Virus record (IMG/VR): IMGVR_UViG_3300050166_000025
Coordinates: 1 to 64,000 of that record
DNA: 64,000 nt
From: a virus
Direction: 5' to 3' (one strand)
Position 1 is the first letter of the stretch, and the number at the start of each line of letters is the position of its first letter. The position numbers were made by a program, and so were the translations under genes. The notes under the pieces are model-generated. The model saw only the letters and a list, made by a program, of their open reading frames with translations. It did not search any database and had not been told where the DNA came from. Shown one piece after another: positions 4,756 to 48,883 of this stretch.

Positions 4756-5048
4756 AGGAGAGTGAGGGATTCGAACCCCCGGTCCTGTTACAGACTTCGG
4801 TTTTCCTTACTACTATAGCTTTCGCTACCATTTAAAATGTTTGATAGTCTGGACTTTATCTCAACCATATCATTTCTGACTTAGGCCATCCCCGTCAAGT
4901 CTCTACACCTTCCTATCACTAGGCTTGGCTCGGGGTTGCCATTTTACAGGTTTCTCCGAATTTGAGGATGTTTGCAACATATCTTTTCAAATATGCAGCT
5001 CGATTTTAGAATTAAGACCGACGCGTTCGACCGCTCTGCCAACTCTCC
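4756..5048 (-). tRNA. trnS: tRNA-Ser(UGA), interrupted by a group I intron (exons 5048-5014 and 4805-4756)
   Basis: Spliced sequence GGAGAGTTGGCAGAGCGGTCGAACGCGTCGGTCTT|GAAAACCGAAGTCTGTAACAGGACCGGGGGTTCGAATCCCTCACTCTCCT has acceptor GGAGAGT/ACTCTCC, anticodon stem TCGGT/ACCGA, loop CTTGAAA, long variable arm and TTCGAAT T-loop. CCA is not encoded. Confidence 0.92.
4806..5013 (-). mobile_element. Group I self-splicing intron (IC3/trnL-like), 208 nt, no ORF
   Basis: 5' exon ends in U and the intron ends in G. Core elements AAATTCGGAGAAACC (P), AACCCCGAGCCAA (Q), GGTGTAGAGACTTGACGG (R), GAGATAAAGTCC (S); P1 has U.G at the splice site; P9 TAGC-GAAA-GCTA. Confidence 0.9.
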
Positions 5049-41978: not shown

Positions 41979-42171
41979 TTCCTTGTGTTGTTTTTTGTTC
42001 TAATTCTCTTAAATCTTGCAGCTCTTTAGTTGCTAGATTAATTTCAGATTCTAACATAGCCATTCTAGTTTGTAAAACCTTGACTCTATTTAAAATCTCT
42101 TGATATTTCTCGACAAATTCTAATTGAATTTGATCTAAATTATCTAATAAGTGTTCCGAATTCGTTTGCAT
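41965..42171 (-). CDS. Small coiled-coil hypothetical protein
   Basis: 68-aa ORF coupled to both neighbours. Confidence 0.6.
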   Translation of the reverse strand: MQTNSEHLLDNLDQIQLEFVEKYQEILNRVKVLQTRMAMLESEINLATKELQDLRELEQKTTQGNGKK

Positions 42172-43364
42172 TAAAATAGTGTTGATGAATAGATTAAATT
42201 TCTATTTAAAGTTTGTAGACCTACGCAGCCTAATACTCGATTCAATGGATCAATGATACATTTTTCAAATTGAGTTTCATAGTCCATTGCTGGAGCAAAC
42301 TCATAGGGGTGATCTCCTGGCAAGTAGCCAAACATCTCGCATACAGCATGTTCACAGTGATATAGTTTTAACTTTTCACCGTTATTAATCATTCTGTATT
42401 TAGACTTATACTTTGAATTGTTATTCATTAAGTAGTTGTAAAAACCAGCAGCTTTAACGTTAGGTGGACATTTAAGACCATACTCAAAACGACTATGATC
42501 ATCTATGATATACTTTTCAATGTTATTGGTTCTCTTATTGAATGAAATCTCGTCTACGCTTACCATCTTAAACTCTTTCTTGACTTTCTTTAAGAATGTC
42601 ACAATGGTGGTTAGTGTTTCTGGTGTAGGTTTCTTTTCAAAAAGAATCTGCAAAGCTTCTGCTAGTTTTTTTCTGGCGAATGTTGGTGTAGAAGATTGAA
42701 TGGTATCATATCCAACTGTTTTAATCTTCTTTAGCATTTTATGTCTTTCGCTCTTGCTCAACTTATCATCCCATGCTAGATTCTGCAGATACTTTTTCTT
42801 TGCCATCCAGATTCCTGAGTACGCAATCGATTCCATTTCAAAAACTAAGAAGGAATCTGTATTTGTATTTTCAGCGTACTTATCAAGTGCCTTAACAATA
42901 TAGTCTTTAATTCTAAGATCATATATCGCTAAGATGAATGTTACAATGTCCATCTTTTCACCTAACCATTCGATAGATTCATACATTTCCTGAAATTGAA
43001 CGTAGTTTGAATCTGTATCAATATAAATTACAGCCGGTTTATAAACTGGTTTATTTACCTTGATATTAAACTTCTTATGAATCTCTGTGTCCTTTATGAA
43101 AAAGTCTTGAAAATACTTGTTTAGAATCTTTTCTGAATATAAGATAGCGTTTTGTCCTTGTAATGTAATAGACTCTGCGATATCGATATTAAAGAAGTGA
43201 AACCACTTATTTCCAAATGCACCATAAATTGAGTTAAGCATAACTTTAACGGCTTGTTCGTATGCAGTAAACTTAGCAGACTCTACTTCATAGAAATCTG
43301 CTAAGTGTTTCATCTCTTCAAGCGTTAATTCTTCTTCTGGCTTATTTAGAAGTTGTTCTATCAT
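42171..43364 (-). CDS. gp43: Family B DNA polymerase, C-terminal subunit (43B-like)
   Basis: KVMLNSIYG (motif B), YIDTDS (motif C) and KKKY. Confidence 0.92.
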   Translation of the reverse strand: MIEQLLNKPEEELTLEEMKHLADFYEVESAKFTAYEQAVKVMLNSIYGAFGNKWFHFFNIDIAESITLQGQNAILYSEKILNKYFQDFFIKDTEIHKKFNIKVNKPVYKPAVIYIDTDSNYVQFQEMYESIEWLGEKMDIVTFILAIYDLRIKDYIVKALDKYAENTNTDSFLVFEMESIAYSGIWMAKKKYLQNLAWDDKLSKSERHKMLKKIKTVGYDTIQSSTPTFARKKLAEALQILFEKKPTPETLTTIVTFLKKVKKEFKMVSVDEISFNKRTNNIEKYIIDDHSRFEYGLKCPPNVKAAGFYNYLMNNNSKYKSKYRMINNGEKLKLYHCEHAVCEMFGYLPGDHPYEFAPAMDYETQFEKCIIDPLNRVLGCVGLQTLNRNLIYSSTLF

Positions 43365-44110
43365 TAATCAGCTGATTGACAAGTTGCAATTGTTAGAAGA
43401 GTATTTGAATCCTTTGAGCGTAATACTACTCGGTTAGAGAATACGTTTGCCGCATAATCTTCTTTATCAAATAGATTTAAGTATTTCTTGTAGATCACTG
43501 CATTGGATTTAGCAGCACCCGTAGTGTTGATTAATTTACTGTAAGACTTACCTTTAATACGAACACCTTCTTTAGAAGAAGAGATTGTAAAGGTTTCATC
43601 TTTATCTAAACCAAATAAAGATTTGATTTTAGTAACCTCGTTGTGAGTAATGTCGAAGTTAACGTCAGCTCCTTCTAGAGAGAAGATGTTCTGTAATTGT
43701 GCTTCAGTTAAGTCTTTGAAGCCAAGAGATGGCTCTGAACAAGCTAAAGTAATCTCTAACTCGTCATTAAAAATCTTAAAGCTAGAAGCTACAAAATCTT
43801 CATCATTTTCTAAGAATTCAATTTCAGCTTGAATAGAATCATACTCAAATTGACGGAATGCATCAATTAATTTATTTGCATCAAAGAATGCAACTTTAAG
43901 CTCCTTTGTGGTTTCAATCTTATTAGCTAGTGCAAAGATTTCATTTACTGGAACTTGGTGATGCTTAACTGCGTCACGCTGAGGCAAATAAGCCGAAGAG
44001 ATAATACGATCATCCTTAATCTTGAAGTAGATGAATGAATCGATAACCTTGAGACGATTGACGAACGTGATGAATGAGTTCTGATCAACCTTAGAGATTG
44101 TTACTTTCAT
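43364..44110 (-). CDS. Probable sliding clamp (gp45-like)
   Basis: 248 aa, alternating alpha/beta pattern, adjacent to the polymerase, middle-type promoter. Confidence 0.55.
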   Translation of the reverse strand: MKVTISKVDQNSFITFVNRLKVIDSFIYFKIKDDRIISSAYLPQRDAVKHHQVPVNEIFALANKIETTKELKVAFFDANKLIDAFRQFEYDSIQAEIEFLENDEDFVASSFKIFNDELEITLACSEPSLGFKDLTEAQLQNIFSLEGADVNFDITHNEVTKIKSLFGLDKDETFTISSSKEGVRIKGKSYSKLINTTGAAKSNAVIYKKYLNLFDKEDYAANVFSNRVVLRSKDSNTLLTIATCQSAD

Positions 44111-44134
44111 ATTTATTTTTTGTTACGTTTAGTT

Positions 44135-44163
44135 ATTCTATATGAAAGATGCAGTTTGTTTCA
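44135..44163 (-). promoter_or_regulatory. Putative middle promoter TGAAAC-N17-TAGAAT
   Basis: Exact-spacing motif. Confidence 0.55.
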
Positions 44164-44167
44164 AAAC

Positions 44168-44256
44168 AAAAAAAGGGCAGGAATAGTAGCGAACGTTTTC
44201 CTGCCCAAGCCGTTAACTAAGAACGGTCCTAAAATGTGGCCGTCTTTCAGGCCACC
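44168..44256. ncRNA. Three-hairpin element after nrdA with 23S rRNA H69-region similarity; the last hairpin is a minus-strand terminator
   Basis: Plus strand GCCGTTAACTAAGAACGGTCCTAA (44209-44232) and GTAGCGAA (44186-44193) versus 23S GCCGTAACTATAACGGTCCTAAGGTAGCGAA; stems GGGCAGGAA/TTCCTGCCC and GTGGCC/GGCCAC. Confidence 0.6.
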
Positions 44257-44263
44257 GGATCTT

Positions 44264-45919
44264 TTATGCCTCGCAGCTTGCGCAATCCAATATATCTCTT
44301 GCGAATGACTGCGCTGAACTCTGGCTAAATTGATAATATAGAGTCTTAACTCCTGACTCATGTGCTCTAAGATATAATTGATTAATATCTTTTGCTGGCA
44401 CACTTGGGTGAATCATTAAATTCAGAGACTGTGATTGGTCAATAAATTGTTGTCTTTGACCAGCTTGTAAGATAATTTCACTTGGAGAGATCTCAACGAA
44501 TGACTTAAATACCCTTTTAGTTGGAAAGTCTAAGTGCTGAACTGAACCATCTCTTTTCAAGATTCCTTCCCAAACATCGGGAGTATTCAAATCATATTTA
44601 ATTAGCTCTTTAATTAAGAAAGGATTCTTATAGATGGTCTTTGATTTCGCCAAGTCTTTTACAAAATAGTTAGACTTAATAGGCTCGATTCCCATTGACA
44701 CTTGCCCATGAATAAAAGAGCTTGATTTAGTTGGAGCGATTGCAATCAAGGTAGTGTTTGCAAATCCTTCTCTTAAAGAACGGTATCCCTTCTCATCATG
44801 TAACCATTTTGAAGCCAGTTCTGTCTTCTCTTTAAGAGTTTTAAAGATTTGGAAGTTTAACTGTTTTGCCTCTAGTGAATCAAACTCAATTAGCTTTGAT
44901 TGGAATAGAGAATGGTACCCTAAGACTCCAACTCCAAGAGCTCTGTGCTGCTCTGCGAACCGGTGTGCTCTTGACATACCTGGTAGATTATATGATTTCT
45001 TAACGAATTCATCCATTACTGCGTTTAAGAACATTGTATAGATCTCGATAGCGTCAGTGTCCTTTAATTCATCCCAATGTAAAAGATTGATAGAACCTAA
45101 ACAGCATACGAACGAATTGAATGAGTCGGTCGGTAATTGAATCTCTGAGCACAGGTTACTTGCTGTAATGTCAAGTCCTAGAGCCTTATATGGTGAATTA
45201 TTATTAGAGTTGTCCTTGAACATAATGTAAGGAAAACCAAACTCGTTTCTTCTCTGAATAATCTTAGCCCAGATCTTGCGCTTATCAGCATCACCGGCTT
45301 TCATTTCTTCTATCCACTTATCAGTAACTGTAACACCATACTGTAAGTTTTGAATTGGATTTCCATCCGAACCAATATCTAAAAATTCTAGGATATCACT
45401 GTGCTCTACCGGTAACCAGGCTGCGCATGCTCCTCTTCTTGCTTCTGATTGTTTACATACGTCAACTGTTGTATCGTACATTCTAGCGTAGTGAACTGGG
45501 CCATCTGCTGTTCCGCCTGTTGAAATCTTCGTGCCTCTTGCTCTAATATTACCTAAGAAGATGGAGGTTCCTCCACCATACTTTGACATCATTCCAATTT
45601 CTCTAGAACCATTTAAGATACTATCTAATGTGTCATCGACATTAGAACCGTAGCAGCTGATTGGAAGACCTTTGTCTTTGCCAAAATTAATCCAAACTGG
45701 TGTTGAGAGACTGTAAAATCCTCTAGCCATATAGTCTTCAAACTTCTTTGCAAAGCCTTCAACCTTTAAGTATTTTTCTGCTCTATTTGCAATGTCTTTA
45801 ATTCTTTGTTCAGGCGTTTCTGTAATATAACCCCTTGATAAAAAAGTACGGCTCTCTTCATTTAACCAATAATATCTTTCTCTTGTGCCCTCCATAGGAT
45901 CGTTGCCGTTCATTTGCAT
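44264..45919 (-). CDS. nrdA: Ribonucleotide reductase class Ia alpha subunit (no ATP cone)
   Basis: STPV, PISC, GGG, SNLCSEI, APTKSSS, DQSQS, KTLYY and C-terminal CASC. Confidence 0.95.
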   Translation of the reverse strand: MQMNGNDPMEGTRERYYWLNEESRTFLSRGYITETPEQRIKDIANRAEKYLKVEGFAKKFEDYMARGFYSLSTPVWINFGKDKGLPISCYGSNVDDTLDSILNGSREIGMMSKYGGGTSIFLGNIRARGTKISTGGTADGPVHYARMYDTTVDVCKQSEARRGACAAWLPVEHSDILEFLDIGSDGNPIQNLQYGVTVTDKWIEEMKAGDADKRKIWAKIIQRRNEFGFPYIMFKDNSNNNSPYKALGLDITASNLCSEIQLPTDSFNSFVCCLGSINLLHWDELKDTDAIEIYTMFLNAVMDEFVKKSYNLPGMSRAHRFAEQHRALGVGVLGYHSLFQSKLIEFDSLEAKQLNFQIFKTLKEKTELASKWLHDEKGYRSLREGFANTTLIAIAPTKSSSFIHGQVSMGIEPIKSNYFVKDLAKSKTIYKNPFLIKELIKYDLNTPDVWEGILKRDGSVQHLDFPTKRVFKSFVEISPSEIILQAGQRQQFIDQSQSLNLMIHPSVPAKDINQLYLRAHESGVKTLYYQFSQSSAQSFARDILDCASCEA

Positions 45920-45946: not shown

Positions 45947-46927
45947 TTAAAATAAATCGTCTTCTGTAATACTCTTACTCTTCTTATTGTAATCAACTGA
46001 TTTTTTGTAAAAGAAATCTCCCTCCTTAGTTGAAAGAATCTCAACATCAAACCATAGAGTCTTCTCAAGTTCTTGAAAGTCAACCTCGAATACTGGCTCC
46101 ATTCCAATTCTCTGTAAAGAATTATTGAATCTATTTTGAATAAAGTTTTTGATTGTGTCTTTCGAAAGAAAATCAAGTTCTCCTTCTTCAAAGATCCAGT
46201 CTAAGATTTTGCATTCTGAAGCATACGCTTTTTTGCAAGCAGAGTCAATCAGTTCTTCGAATTCTTTATCGAACCACTCTGGATTTTCAGCCTTGATAAT
46301 ATTAATCAGCTCGGAGCCAAAATTACCGTGAATCTCTTCTTCCTTTGAAGTGGCTTCAACCACGTTAGAGATACCCTTAAAGACGTTCTTCTCCTTGTTG
46401 AATGACATCATAATCAAGAACTGACTAAATAAGCTAACGTGTTCGATGAACAGAGAGAATAAAAGAACGCTCTTGGTGTACATCTTATTGTCCTTGCTTC
46501 TAGTACCGTCTAGGTATTTAGATAGGTATGCAATTCTATCTTTGATTGCTGGAATCTCTACTACGTTCTGGAATTCTTCTTCAAGTCCTAGAACTCTTAA
46601 TAGCTGTGCGTAAGCATCTTTGTGTCTTACTTCCGATTCAGCAAAGGTCATGCCTACATCGCCGATTTCAGTGATTGGCATTCTCTTATAAAGATCTGCC
46701 CAGAAAGTTTTAACGTTAACTTCAATTTGTGCAATGGCTAGCATCGCTCTTTTAATTACTTCTCTTTCTTGATCAGTGATTTTTGTCTTAAAATCATCGA
46801 TATCAGTGGTAAAGTTAAATTCAGTGTGAATCCAGTATGAGTGTCTAATTGCGTCTTTATAAGCTAGAAGTGACGGGTACTCGTATGGTAGAATGTTAAC
46901 TCTTTTTTCAAAAATATTATTGTTCAT
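45947..46927 (-). CDS. nrdB: Ribonucleotide reductase class Ia beta subunit
   Basis: ESEVRHKDAY, EHVSLFSQF, EEEIH and DFF...Y C-terminus. Confidence 0.95.
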   Translation of the reverse strand: MNNNIFEKRVNILPYEYPSLLAYKDAIRHSYWIHTEFNFTTDIDDFKTKITDQEREVIKRAMLAIAQIEVNVKTFWADLYKRMPITEIGDVGMTFAESEVRHKDAYAQLLRVLGLEEEFQNVVEIPAIKDRIAYLSKYLDGTRSKDNKMYTKSVLLFSLFIEHVSLFSQFLIMMSFNKEKNVFKGISNVVEATSKEEEIHGNFGSELINIIKAENPEWFDKEFEELIDSACKKAYASECKILDWIFEEGELDFLSKDTIKNFIQNRFNNSLQRIGMEPVFEVDFQELEKTLWFDVEILSTKEGDFFYKKSVDYNKKSKSITEDDLF

Positions 46928-46983: not shown

Positions 46984-48414
46984 TTAGTTTTTAGGGGCTA
47001 AATTTGCTTTCTCTATTTCAGCAATTTTTTTTCTTAATAAATCTGCTTTAGTGTAATAAGTATACGAGAGCTTCTTATAATGCTTTCTTTGGTCATATAG
47101 ATCAGATAATATTTTTTTCAAAATAGATTCTTCCTTTGAATAAACTACACCGTTTTCACAAACAATTACGTTCTTATCTTTGCGTCTTTCTGCTATTTTA
47201 TCCGGCGTTACTTTTTCAACAAAGGCATCGGGCGAGATATTAAATTGTCTCATAATCGAAGGATATAGAGATGCAAAGTCAAAGGCTGTAACTCCTTCGT
47301 AGAATCCAACTAAAGGCTCTTTTACAAAGGCTCCAGCGTACTGCGTATCTTTCTTATTGTCTTCTCTTGGTTCTGTTCCAATACGTTTGCCGTCTTCGGT
47401 TAATTTTCTAGCGATAAGAGCTTCGGTTACTGCCACCGGGCTCGCTGCTTTATATAGAGGCATCTTTGCAATCGAGGCTAGAGTCAATAAGACTTCCATT
47501 GACTTTAACTTTTTATCAATGTAATAGACTAGAATTGAATCGACAACGTTATAGTAGATGTATTTTGTAAAGTTATCTCTATATAAATCCTGTAAAGATC
47601 CTGTGTATTTAATCTTATTTGTTTTAAGTACTTGACCGGCCACAAAATCTAGAGCGTTAGACTCTTTTACTTTTACAGAGCGATCATACTTATCGTATAA
47701 CTGCATGTAGTCTAGAATGCCCATGTGAAGAGGACGTGAGTCTTCGGAATCCAATGAACCAGTTTTAGCGGCTTCAGTGATATCGATCTGTAATCTTTTG
47801 CATCGATTTACAATATATTGCCAGTCATAGTTGATAAAGTTCCAACCTGTCATCATTGGAAAGCGAGTCATAAACTTATTGACAAATGTATACACCATAT
47901 CATATTCTGTCTTGAATTTGATATACTGAAAGGACCATTCATCATTAAATTGCTTAAAATACTCGTTCGTATCATCTTCAATCTTCTTGATCTTATCGGC
48001 TTCCATGTCCTCTAAACCCAATACAATTACTTTCTTAGAAGGAGTGACGATTGAAAATGCTAAGATTCTTGATTTAGCCTCCTCTGCTTTTGGAAAACCA
48101 TCGACGATTTCAGTTTCAATATCGACAAAGTAGGTCTTTGGCATATTGTACTCGTAGATTTCTGCTTTATCTGCCTCAGGTAAACCATCCATGAAATAAA
48201 CCAATGAGAACTTATTAAACTGTCTGGACGGAGACATTTTTACAGAACGACCATCCCAGTTCTTAAACTTCTCACTAGTGTCACGCTCTTTCGCATCACA
48301 CACATGCCAATTCTTAAACTGCGCGATCGGGTAACGTTTAAAGGCTACTTCGCCTTCTTTATTGTAATACGATACGATAATTTCCTTATCTCTTTGTTCT
48401 ATATCTAATAGCAT
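46984..48414 (-). CDS. gp43: Family B DNA polymerase, N-terminal subunit (exonuclease + motif A; 43A-like)
   Basis: DIETE (ExoI), GWNFINYD (ExoII), YNVVD (ExoIII), GAFVKEP and DFASLYPS; ends in the fingers helix. Start set at MLLDIEQ (48414). Confidence 0.92.
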   Translation of the reverse strand: MLLDIEQRDKEIIVSYYNKEGEVAFKRYPIAQFKNWHVCDAKERDTSEKFKNWDGRSVKMSPSRQFNKFSLVYFMDGLPEADKAEIYEYNMPKTYFVDIETEIVDGFPKAEEAKSRILAFSIVTPSKKVIVLGLEDMEADKIKKIEDDTNEYFKQFNDEWSFQYIKFKTEYDMVYTFVNKFMTRFPMMTGWNFINYDWQYIVNRCKRLQIDITEAAKTGSLDSEDSRPLHMGILDYMQLYDKYDRSVKVKESNALDFVAGQVLKTNKIKYTGSLQDLYRDNFTKYIYYNVVDSILVYYIDKKLKSMEVLLTLASIAKMPLYKAASPVAVTEALIARKLTEDGKRIGTEPREDNKKDTQYAGAFVKEPLVGFYEGVTAFDFASLYPSIMRQFNISPDAFVEKVTPDKIAERRKDKNVIVCENGVVYSKEESILKKILSDLYDQRKHYKKLSYTYYTKADLLRKKIAEIEKANLAPKN

Positions 48415-48415
48415 A

Positions 48416-48883
48416 TTAGTATCCTCTTGCTTGACGTGCCTTATTTTCTGCAGCTTTTGTGAAATAGAAATTATAAGCTGTCTTTGCATCTAAGCCAATA
48501 GAAGCTGCGTAATTAATAAAGAAGTGAAGAATGTCAATCCATTCCATGTAAAGTTCTTTCTTATCTCCTTCTGACAAGTCTGCAACCTTTAATGTGTCAT
48601 ACTTGGCAAAGTCTTTCTTCCAATATTTCCAAACTGCATTACCACTACCATCTTTAATACCGCCTAAAGCATCTGTCATCTCGTGAATTTCATCAATCAC
48701 AGCGTGCGTATTTACATGCCAAAAATTCATGACTTCTCTGATTGTCATATCTTCAAACTTAATACCATACGTATTCTCCTGCATCTCTTTCTGATGCTGC
48801 ATGATATCTGCTAGGTGTGTTGTTGATTGGTCATAGAAGTCATTTACTTCCAGGTCTTTGCATTCATTATCTATATTTGCCAT
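48416..48883 (-). CDS. gp56: dCTPase/dUTPase (T4 gp56 family)
   Basis: NEC, IDEIHE, AVWKYWK, EWIDILHF and ENKARQARGY align with T4 gp56 (AVWKKWK, ELVDIFHF, NFERQDNGY). Confidence 0.85.
   Translation of the reverse strand: MANIDNECKDLEVNDFYDQSTTHLADIMQHQKEMQENTYGIKFEDMTIREVMNFWHVNTHAVIDEIHEMTDALGGIKDGSGNAVWKYWKKDFAKYDTLKVADLSEGDKKELYMEWIDILHFFINYAASIGLDAKTAYNFYFTKAAENKARQARGY

Follow-up and report, generated by a model that had tools for sequence, protein, structure and literature searches.

A structured RNA element linked to nrdA in an uncultured T4-like phage

Background

The closest described systems to the RNA element treated here, which lies behind nrdA on the minus strand (44168-44255) of an uncultured T4-like phage, are small RNAs made from 3' untranslated regions (3' UTRs) and rRNA-complementary elements of eukaryotic viruses. 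The DNA analysed, called the window below, is the stretch of 64,000 nucleotides at the start of IMG/VR virus record IMGVR_UViG_3300050166_000025; this uncultured contig has a total length of 151,111 bp, a GC content of 36.7% and an estimated CheckV completeness of ~47%. The 3'-UTR small RNAs CpxQ, SroC and DapZ follow a stop codon, include the terminator end of their gene and carry a short conserved single-stranded seed upstream of it, and the nrdA-linked element shares this layout. It differs in that its conserved bases are antisense to 23S ribosomal RNA (rRNA) rather than to mRNAs and that the second conserved block is placed inside the terminator loop. In addition, it is phage-borne, single-copy and hops between genes.

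The barley yellow dwarf virus-like translation element (BTE) of plant viruses and the termination upstream ribosome-binding site (TURBS) of caliciviruses are also viral, are located near the end of an open reading frame (ORF) or in the 3' UTR, and present invariant unpaired bases complementary to rRNA. The same type of complementarity is found in the nrdA-linked element, where two invariant segments, UUAGGACCG (segment 1) and UUCGCUAC (segment 2), are exact complements of 23S positions 1920-1928 and 1930-1937, respectively. The BTE and TURBS are eukaryotic, target 18S rRNA and have demonstrated effects on translation, whereas the phage element is known from its sequence and faces helices 69 and 70 (H69-H70) of the large subunit. 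To our knowledge, and within the literature searched, no bacterial or phage counterpart of the BTE or TURBS has been described, and we know of no bacterial or phage RNA that base-pairs with the H69-H70 region.

Two unpaired segments in parallel order are also used by group II introns (exon-binding sites EBS2/EBS1 with intron-binding sites IBS2/IBS1) and by T-box RNAs (specifier and discriminator). The phage element is ~90 nt long and has neither a ribozyme core nor an expression platform, so the analogy is geometric only. On the rRNA, the stretches facing the two blocks meet at G1929/G1930, a point that coincides with the cut region of I-CeuI and with the R2 nick between AAGG and TAGC in 28S rRNA. 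Unlike H69 itself or the I-CeuI and R2 targets, the element is the complement, its blocks are separated and permuted, and it contains no contiguous endonuclease site. Many sequence-specific elements exploit this spot because it never varies. H69 and its flank form the central intersubunit bridge, with a role in decoding, termination and recycling, and in 50S assembly the H69 region is one of the last to take its place. The target is identical in E. coli and all other bacteria.

Conservation and covariation

A search of viral contigs with the NrdA protein, which is blind to the element, retrieved 80 loci with NrdA 84-95% identical. In 74 of these loci the sequence downstream is long enough to judge, and in 44 of the 74 the three-hairpin element directly follows the nrdA stop codon. 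All 44 copies keep segment 2 intact and 43 keep segment 1, while the stems vary across 34 distinct sequences. A relaxed pattern allowing up to two substitutions per block detects one exact second copy elsewhere in the nrdA loci (in L006), and the other relaxed matches carry 2-4 substitutions in total.

From the nrdA stop codon, the minus strand reads hairpin P1, the single-stranded stretch UUUUAGGACCG, hairpin P2, hairpin P3 and seven U. P1 has compensatory changes at 6/6 pairs in 40 distinct relatives, including G-U pairs on the minus strand. P3 has compensatory changes at 9/9 pairs, with 99.4% of its alignment cells paired. P2 covaries at 3/5 pairs and its loop TAGTT is kept at a level of at least 80%. 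A covariance model (R1) built from 14 sequences matches once in the window and 48 times in the nrdA-linked loci. In the R1 alignment, 96.2% of the cells are standard pairs compared to 77% in shuffles and less than 50% when the partners are slid, and 18/20 pairs have changes on both sides. Within this covarying family, no unpaired blocks other than the two that match rRNA are invariant; the conserved information of the element is in its unpaired bases, not in its stems.

The initial annotation, made from the window alone, had proposed a non-coding element and had tied its case to homologues elsewhere and to conservation of the rRNA-matching bases. Homologues exist, the matching bases are precisely the frozen ones, and the element is a real, conserved and covarying RNA family. 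A protein-coding role for the small ORFs at 44120-44308 (plus strand) and 44161-44403 (minus strand) was also considered and rejected, as the variation is not codon-wise: relatives show 1-2-nt indels, paired compensatory stem changes and frozen loops.

The family has no counterpart in the resources searched. In Rfam 15 no family reaches its gathering threshold at the element, and the sole match in the window is a group I intron elsewhere. The best Rfam match at the element itself is sbrA (19 bits versus a threshold of 45, E=1.2), which reflects terminator shape only, and 14 other family members have no Rfam match. A blastn comparison of the locus and of the element's two types (A and B, described below) to the INPHARED isolate phages returned nothing similar. 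Full-text literature searches with the motif strings and with 23S complementarity found the element undescribed and returned only I-CeuI, R2 and oligonucleotide uses. A catalogue of candidate structured RNAs from IMG/VR contains thousands of unnamed motifs, many of which overlap terminators (PMC10690425). In the catalogue text no motif is tied to 23S rRNA, and the element family may be among its unnamed motifs (PMC10690425). The element recurs in many aquatic phages, and the family is real, widespread and previously undescribed.

Complementarity to 23S rRNA

The initial annotation had pointed out a match to H69 and its 3' flank in permuted order. The letters it quoted are all in place: plus-strand 44209-44232 reads GCCGTTAACTAAGAACGGTCCTAA, with AACGGTCCTAA from 44222 on, and the GC-rich hairpin 44175-44206 has GTAGCGAA in its loop (44186-44193). 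The 23S sequence used for that match is correct as well, with two Rfam-verified 23S genes (L204 and L247) reading GCCGTAACTATAACGGTCCTAAGGTAGCGAAATTCC. E. coli 23S numbering is used here; pseudouridines 1911, 1915 and 1917 together with m5U1939 agree with the sequence and serve as anchors of the numbering. The 11-nt match by itself is not above chance, as 72 window 11-mers are shared with one 23S gene. Since the match in a single window is at chance level, the finding rests on the comparative evidence.

Segment 1 is the exact reverse complement of 23S C1920-A1928, which covers the 3' strand of H69 and the junction, and segment 2 is the exact reverse complement of G1930-A1937, where H70 begins. 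UUCGCUAC is always followed by U or C, opposite G1929, and U or C is also usual at the two positions that precede UUAGGACCG (two U in the window). These flanking pyrimidines would fit pairing or wobble with G1929 and G1930. P2 prolongs the antisense register through H69, and its loop sequence UAGUU is complementary to the H69 loop A1912-A1916. The segments and the P2 loop together are antisense to 23S 1912-1937, a span that takes in the loop and 3' strand of H69, the junction, and the first (5') strand of H70. The linker and P2 have a predicted duplex energy of -31.9 kcal/mol at the H69 site compared to -22.6 +/- 2.2 for shuffles. In one relative (L057) the reverse complement differs from the 23S sequence GCCGUAACUAUAACGGUCCUAA by 1 base over 22 nt.

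For an invariant 9-mer together with an invariant 8-mer, the probability of both falling on one 23S strand within 12 nt of each other by chance is ~8e-6. The order of the blocks is permuted, with the upstream block complementary to the upstream rRNA stretch, and this excludes a simple captured antisense fragment. In the 151-kb record the complement of segment 1, GGTCCTAA, occurs nowhere outside the element and the other GTAGCGAA is found solely in a tRNA-Leu intron; therefore, the partner is not expected in this phage fragment. The match itself is confirmed, and its interpretation is supported in part. The antisense relationship to H69-H70 holds up, and the H69-like hairpin noted by the initial annotation is the least conserved part and is dispensable in many members. 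The core of the element consists of the segments complementary to 1920-1928 and 1930-1937 rather than of that hairpin.

Variants in other phages

A scan of viral contigs for the two blocks spaced 15-45 nt apart gave at least 120 matches, and so did a reversed control pattern. The two-block pattern in 596 Gb of bacterial genomes has 120 matches listed, which are chance or 23S genes with a second TTCGCTAC. Since the control also matches so often, helix content and not counts separates real instances from chance. Among the matches listed, the helix enclosing UUCGCUAC has a mean of 7.1 bp in viral contigs (at least 6 bp in 70/115), 3.6 bp in the control (7/98) and 3.5 bp in bacteria (11/107). The structured element therefore appears specific to phages, because the bacterial and reversed-control matches are without the flanking helix.

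The viral instances are of two types. Type A, as in the window, has P1, segment 1, P2 and then the terminator with segment 2 in its loop. Some type A variants carry segment 1 within a hairpin loop of 7 nt (ACGG-AUUAGGA-CCGU), and an unrelated hairpin takes the place of P2. Type B is without a U-tract. It has CCUUAGGAC in a hairpin loop, and in some members only, a P2 (CGCA-CUAGU-UGCG) is inserted. Next come a short hairpin with loop GGCUGCU, a two-part hairpin that presents AUUCGCUACC and, at the end, the conserved tail AAGUGAGCA. Covariation is seen in three helices of type B, with 90% of cells paired compared to 73% in shuffles and 10 pairs changed on both sides. The two rRNA-complementary blocks are the common core of both types, with the H69-like hairpin as an optional part. 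The carrier loci range from 26 to 52% GC, and this breadth across scaffolds and base composition would fit a host-independent, universally conserved partner. One locus from an Aliicoccus metagenome-assembled genome (L213:3030-3119) has a tandem repeat with a period of ~51 nt that contains TTAGGACCG, TTCGCTAC and GTAGCGA and is without the architecture of the element.

Strand of the functional RNA

The helices contain 15 G-U pairs versus 1 A-C on the gene strand, and many G-U pairs are also present in the type B helices. G-U pairs would be A-C mismatches on the opposite strand, so the functional RNA is on the gene strand. The P3 stem has 6/9 G-C pairs followed by seven U, as expected of an intrinsic terminator; the same holds for the type A relatives, and T-runs follow P3 in relatives as well. 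A simple scanner skipped this terminator because the 14-nt loop is longer than the scanner limit of 8. Among the instances with enough flank, 109/126 are no more than 60 nt behind an ORF that is on their own strand and 80 aa or longer, and only 11/126 have a convergent ORF on the other side. The pair counts, the U-tract and the orientation relative to the same-strand stop codon together place the RNA on the gene strand, antisense to rRNA. Minimum free energy (MFE) comparison of the strands favours sense for type A and antisense for type B; the G-U/A-C counts on defined helices were used instead.

The reading of the GC-rich hairpin 44175-44206 as a minus-strand terminator is supported by the run of 7 T after it on the minus strand. 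The prediction that the nrdA 3' UTR would be antisense to H69-H70 is likewise upheld, as the gene-strand RNA is the exact complement of the 23S blocks. The other option raised at the time, an H69 mimic or decoy on the opposite strand, is not supported by the pair counts, the U-tract and the orientation. Conservation also speaks against an H69 mimic, since the P2 loop varies, and P2 itself is absent in short type B elements and replaced by unrelated hairpins in other members.

Proposed function

Most likely the element has a role of its own as an RNA, either as a 3'-UTR-embedded small RNA or as an mRNA tail. The single copy per genome and its relocation behind unrelated genes give indirect support to the small RNA option. 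From the complementarity we infer that the partner would be 23S rRNA, and the element is probably a phage RNA of a new kind, pairing with host rRNA. That it is a non-coding module in the 3' end of phage mRNA which base-pairs with the host 23S rRNA has about an even chance of being correct. It is proposed more tentatively that aquatic T4-like phages use a dedicated, usually single-copy RNA to capture or block the large subunit through 23S 1920-1937.

In the proposed mechanism, P3 and the U-tract would also end the nrdA transcript, and the two presented segments would pair with the invariant H69-H70 strand of the host 23S rRNA. The likeliest target would be nascent or immature 23S rRNA or a dynamic free 50S subunit, in which the strand may not yet be locked. 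Possible outcomes include tethering of the 50S subunit to phage RNA, a block of the interface or of subunit joining, arrest of late 50S assembly, or stabilisation of the RNA. In type A, a ribosome terminating near the stop codon would melt P1; in type B it would overlie segment 1. It may be speculated that proximity to the stop codon couples folding of the element to translation.

Several points weigh against this reading of the element. In mature ribosomes positions 1920-1924 and 1931-1937 are base-paired in H69 and H70, so pairing in the mature 50S subunit would need strand invasion. Position 1915 is m3-pseudouridine in many bacteria, which does not form a Watson-Crick pair and would block contact with the P2 loop. 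These two facts make nascent or immature 23S rRNA or free 50S subunits the more plausible targets. Both segments claim G1929/G1930 and therefore cannot both fully pair with one target. The part of the element facing H69, P2, is poorly conserved and often absent, with loops such as UUUGUU, CUAGAU and ACUGGU among the variants in relatives. Instances derived from the pattern were selected for both blocks, and the nrdA-linked set alone is unbiased. Type B folds no better than shuffled sequence thermodynamically. A type B pseudoknot between the GGCUGCU loop and the 3' tail is without covariation in the short subset tested, and its contiguous-run statistic equals that of shuffled tails; a few long-form sequences hint at this pseudoknot, which is tentative. 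Finally, a complete 197-kb relative is without an exact-pattern copy, so the element is not essential for the lineage.

If pairing with 23S rRNA is real, the element would be the first natural anti-rRNA riboregulator of the bacterial ribosome, able to work in any host since its target is invariant, and it would also provide a small natural template for sequence-specific ligands of the ribosome interface. The frozen anti-H69/H70 bases on drifting scaffolds may mark an unrecognised route for phages onto host ribosomes. If pairing is refuted, the family is still an undescribed and well-supported structured phage RNA that needs an explanation.

Alternative explanations

The invariant loops may instead be recognition sites for a protein, either of the phage or a conserved one of the host, or for an RNA other than rRNA, in which case the 23S complementarity would be a coincidence or a relic. 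Conserved hairpin loops are classic protein-binding sites, and this explanation would also account for the awkwardness of simultaneous pairing, given the overlap of the segments on two rRNA bases and the structured target in mature ribosomes. It is nevertheless unlikely, as two invariant blocks complementary to adjacent positions of one rRNA strand are difficult to obtain by chance (~8e-6) and a third, weaker block, the P2 loop, keeps the same antisense register. Invariance across differing GC and gene content does not fit a co-evolving phage protein well. There is also no conserved neighbouring gene that could encode a protein partner; only a dsbA-like gene (type B) and the 248-aa ORF (nrdA-linked type A) are recurrent.

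The element could also be a cis-acting 3' end alone, with a terminator and extra hairpins that protect from exonucleases or tune read-through and with no partner in trans. P3 and the U-tract form a canonical intrinsic terminator, the element is always close behind a stop codon, and one locus (L011) has a degenerate copy with P3 only. A stabiliser or terminator would need its stems and not invariant loops; in this family it is the loops that are frozen, while the stems change freely. Type B elements lack the U-tract, and there is one copy per genome behind unrelated genes although genomes need many terminators. A purely cis-acting role therefore has only a small probability.

It is improbable in the extreme that the plus-strand RNA is the functional one, acting through an H69 look-alike with CCUAA, and with GUAGCGAA in a second loop, as a decoy for RluD, RlmH, ribosome recycling factor or a nuclease. 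Some relatives are almost exactly H69-like (L057 is one base off GCCGUAACUAUAACGGUCCUAA), A-rich stretches before P1 form a weak terminator-like site on the plus strand, and the plus strand of the window folds slightly better. These observations are outweighed by the 15 G-U versus 1 A-C on the gene strand, with many more G-U pairs in type B, and by the fixed orientation to the upstream gene with neighbours all on the minus strand. In addition, the H69-like hairpin is dispensable and the permuted order fails to reproduce the local structure of the rRNA. A DNA-level feature, such as a remnant or target of an rDNA mobile element (an I-CeuI-type site, an L1931 intron or an R2-like target), is scarcely credible: the matched stretch is the I-CeuI site, includes the R2 nick position between AAGG and TAGC, and the phage has a group I intron, but the site is split, with AATG and not GGTAGCGA after CCTAA and the second half 30 nt off on the wrong side, the compensatory stem changes and G-U pairs indicate selection on RNA, and no endonuclease gene is consistently adjacent.

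A contiguous I-CeuI-type site of ~19-26 bp, running from CCTAA into GGTAGCGA, was rejected because the window reads CGGTCCTAAAATG and has GTAGCGAA 30 nt upstream. H/ACA and C/D guides, RNase P external guide sequences, a group I internal guide sequence and an IS110 bridge RNA were dropped, since these guides read colinear antisense or both DNA strands and the element reads one strand in parallel order.

Gene context and mobility

The genes upstream of the element are diverse and include ribonucleotide reductase, desaturase, nucleases, tail tube and many unknowns. The downstream genes are diverse as well; 19/125 are a small dsbA-like 'transcriptional regulator' (phrog_639). Type B is often directly upstream of this ~85-aa gene (phrog_639/phrog_12534, weak Pfam Phage_DsbA), for example in L084, L101, L107, L129, L151, L175 and others. 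A TTGACA-type promoter box is frequent between the type B element and the ~85-aa gene.

Exactly one exact-pattern copy is present in each of 9 large carrier contigs, 4 of which are at least 91% complete. In a 294-kb relative nrdA is without the element, and the single copy is behind an unrelated 228-aa ORF. Five fragments without the element at nrdA have none in the rest of the available sequence either. The element is thus not tied to nrdA and is usually a single copy behind different genes. A single, relocating copy speaks against a device that regulates nrdA and for an RNA with its own function, and it argues for an element that borrows the 3' end of whichever transcript precedes it.

In L006 two full copies (1660-1708 and 2445-2491) are 0.8 kb apart and flank a ~63-aa gene. 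The degenerate second copy in L011 (2251-2355) consists of the P3 terminator with the UUCGCUAC loop only. Both second copies resemble remnants of a duplication, or of a cassette exchange, at the site of the element.

Features of the locus and the phage record

The features of the locus are listed in Table 1. All genes around the element are on the minus strand, and the element is held in a spacer of 153 nt between nrdA and the 248-aa ORF.

Table 1. Features of the nrdA locus, listed in minus-strand order
Feature	Position	Strand	Basis or remark
DNA polymerase B, N-terminal part	46984-48489	-	1st in minus-strand order
nrdB	45947-46927	-	2nd in minus-strand order
nrdA, class I ribonucleotide reductase large subunit	44264-45919	-	Pfam Ribonuc_red_lgC E=3e-93
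nrdA stop codon TAA	44264..44266	-	ORF list
P1 hairpin, 6-bp stem GUGGCC/GGCCAC, 8-nt loop with UGAA	44236..44255	-	MFE fold
Segment 1, UUAGGACCG, mostly unpaired, last 3 nt open P2	44224..44232	-	sequence
P2 hairpin, CCGUU/AACGG, loop CUUAGUU, complement of H69	44210..44226	-	MFE fold
P3 hairpin, 9-bp stem GGGCAGGAA/UUCCUGCCC, 14-nt loop, also terminator stem	44175..44206	-	MFE fold
Segment 2, UUCGCUAC, within P3 loop	44186..44193	-	sequence
U-tract, 7 U, completes Rho-independent terminator	44168..44174	-	sequence
Sigma-70-like promoter match, TTGAAA-18 nt-TAGAAT, for 248-aa ORF	44135..44164	-	consensus scan, 10/12; consensus match only
248-aa ORF, after RNA element	43364-44110	-	ORF list
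DNA polymerase B, C-terminal part	42171-43364	-	last in minus-strand order

The family B (T4 gp43-like) DNA polymerase is split into two ORFs, with nrdB, nrdA, the RNA element and the 248-aa ORF between the halves. In Pfam, the profile stretches matched by the two ORFs adjoin each other (positions 29-137, then 154-238). The promoter match is directly 3' of the terminator and outside the RNA element, and many relatives have the box GATATATAAT at the equivalent place. The 248-aa ORF has no match in Pfam, PHROG or PDB sequences. Its homologues, with 50-66% identity, are 3' of the element in about a dozen relatives. The language-model neighbours of the protein include a cluster labelled as sliding clamp (gp45-slide_C in 16% of members, score 0.94), so the gene may encode a clamp of the T4 gp45 type; this serves as a lead only.

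The window also contains a class II tRNA resembling tRNA-Leu(UAA) (4760-5040, minus strand), in which a group I intron splits the anticodon loop. The intron matches Rfam RF00028 with 53.4 bits (5023-4830), and ARAGORN reports no tRNA in the window because the intron interrupts the tRNA. The 3' part of the intron has GGUAGCGAAA, which is the sole other GTAGCGAA of the record. Outside of the window, the minus strand of the phage record encodes a bS21 homologue at 115503-115658, whose score of 35 bits exceeds the Pfam cut-off, and at 95165-95623 a protein of 406 aa with two or more S1 domains. With these two genes, the phage already carries components of the translation machinery.

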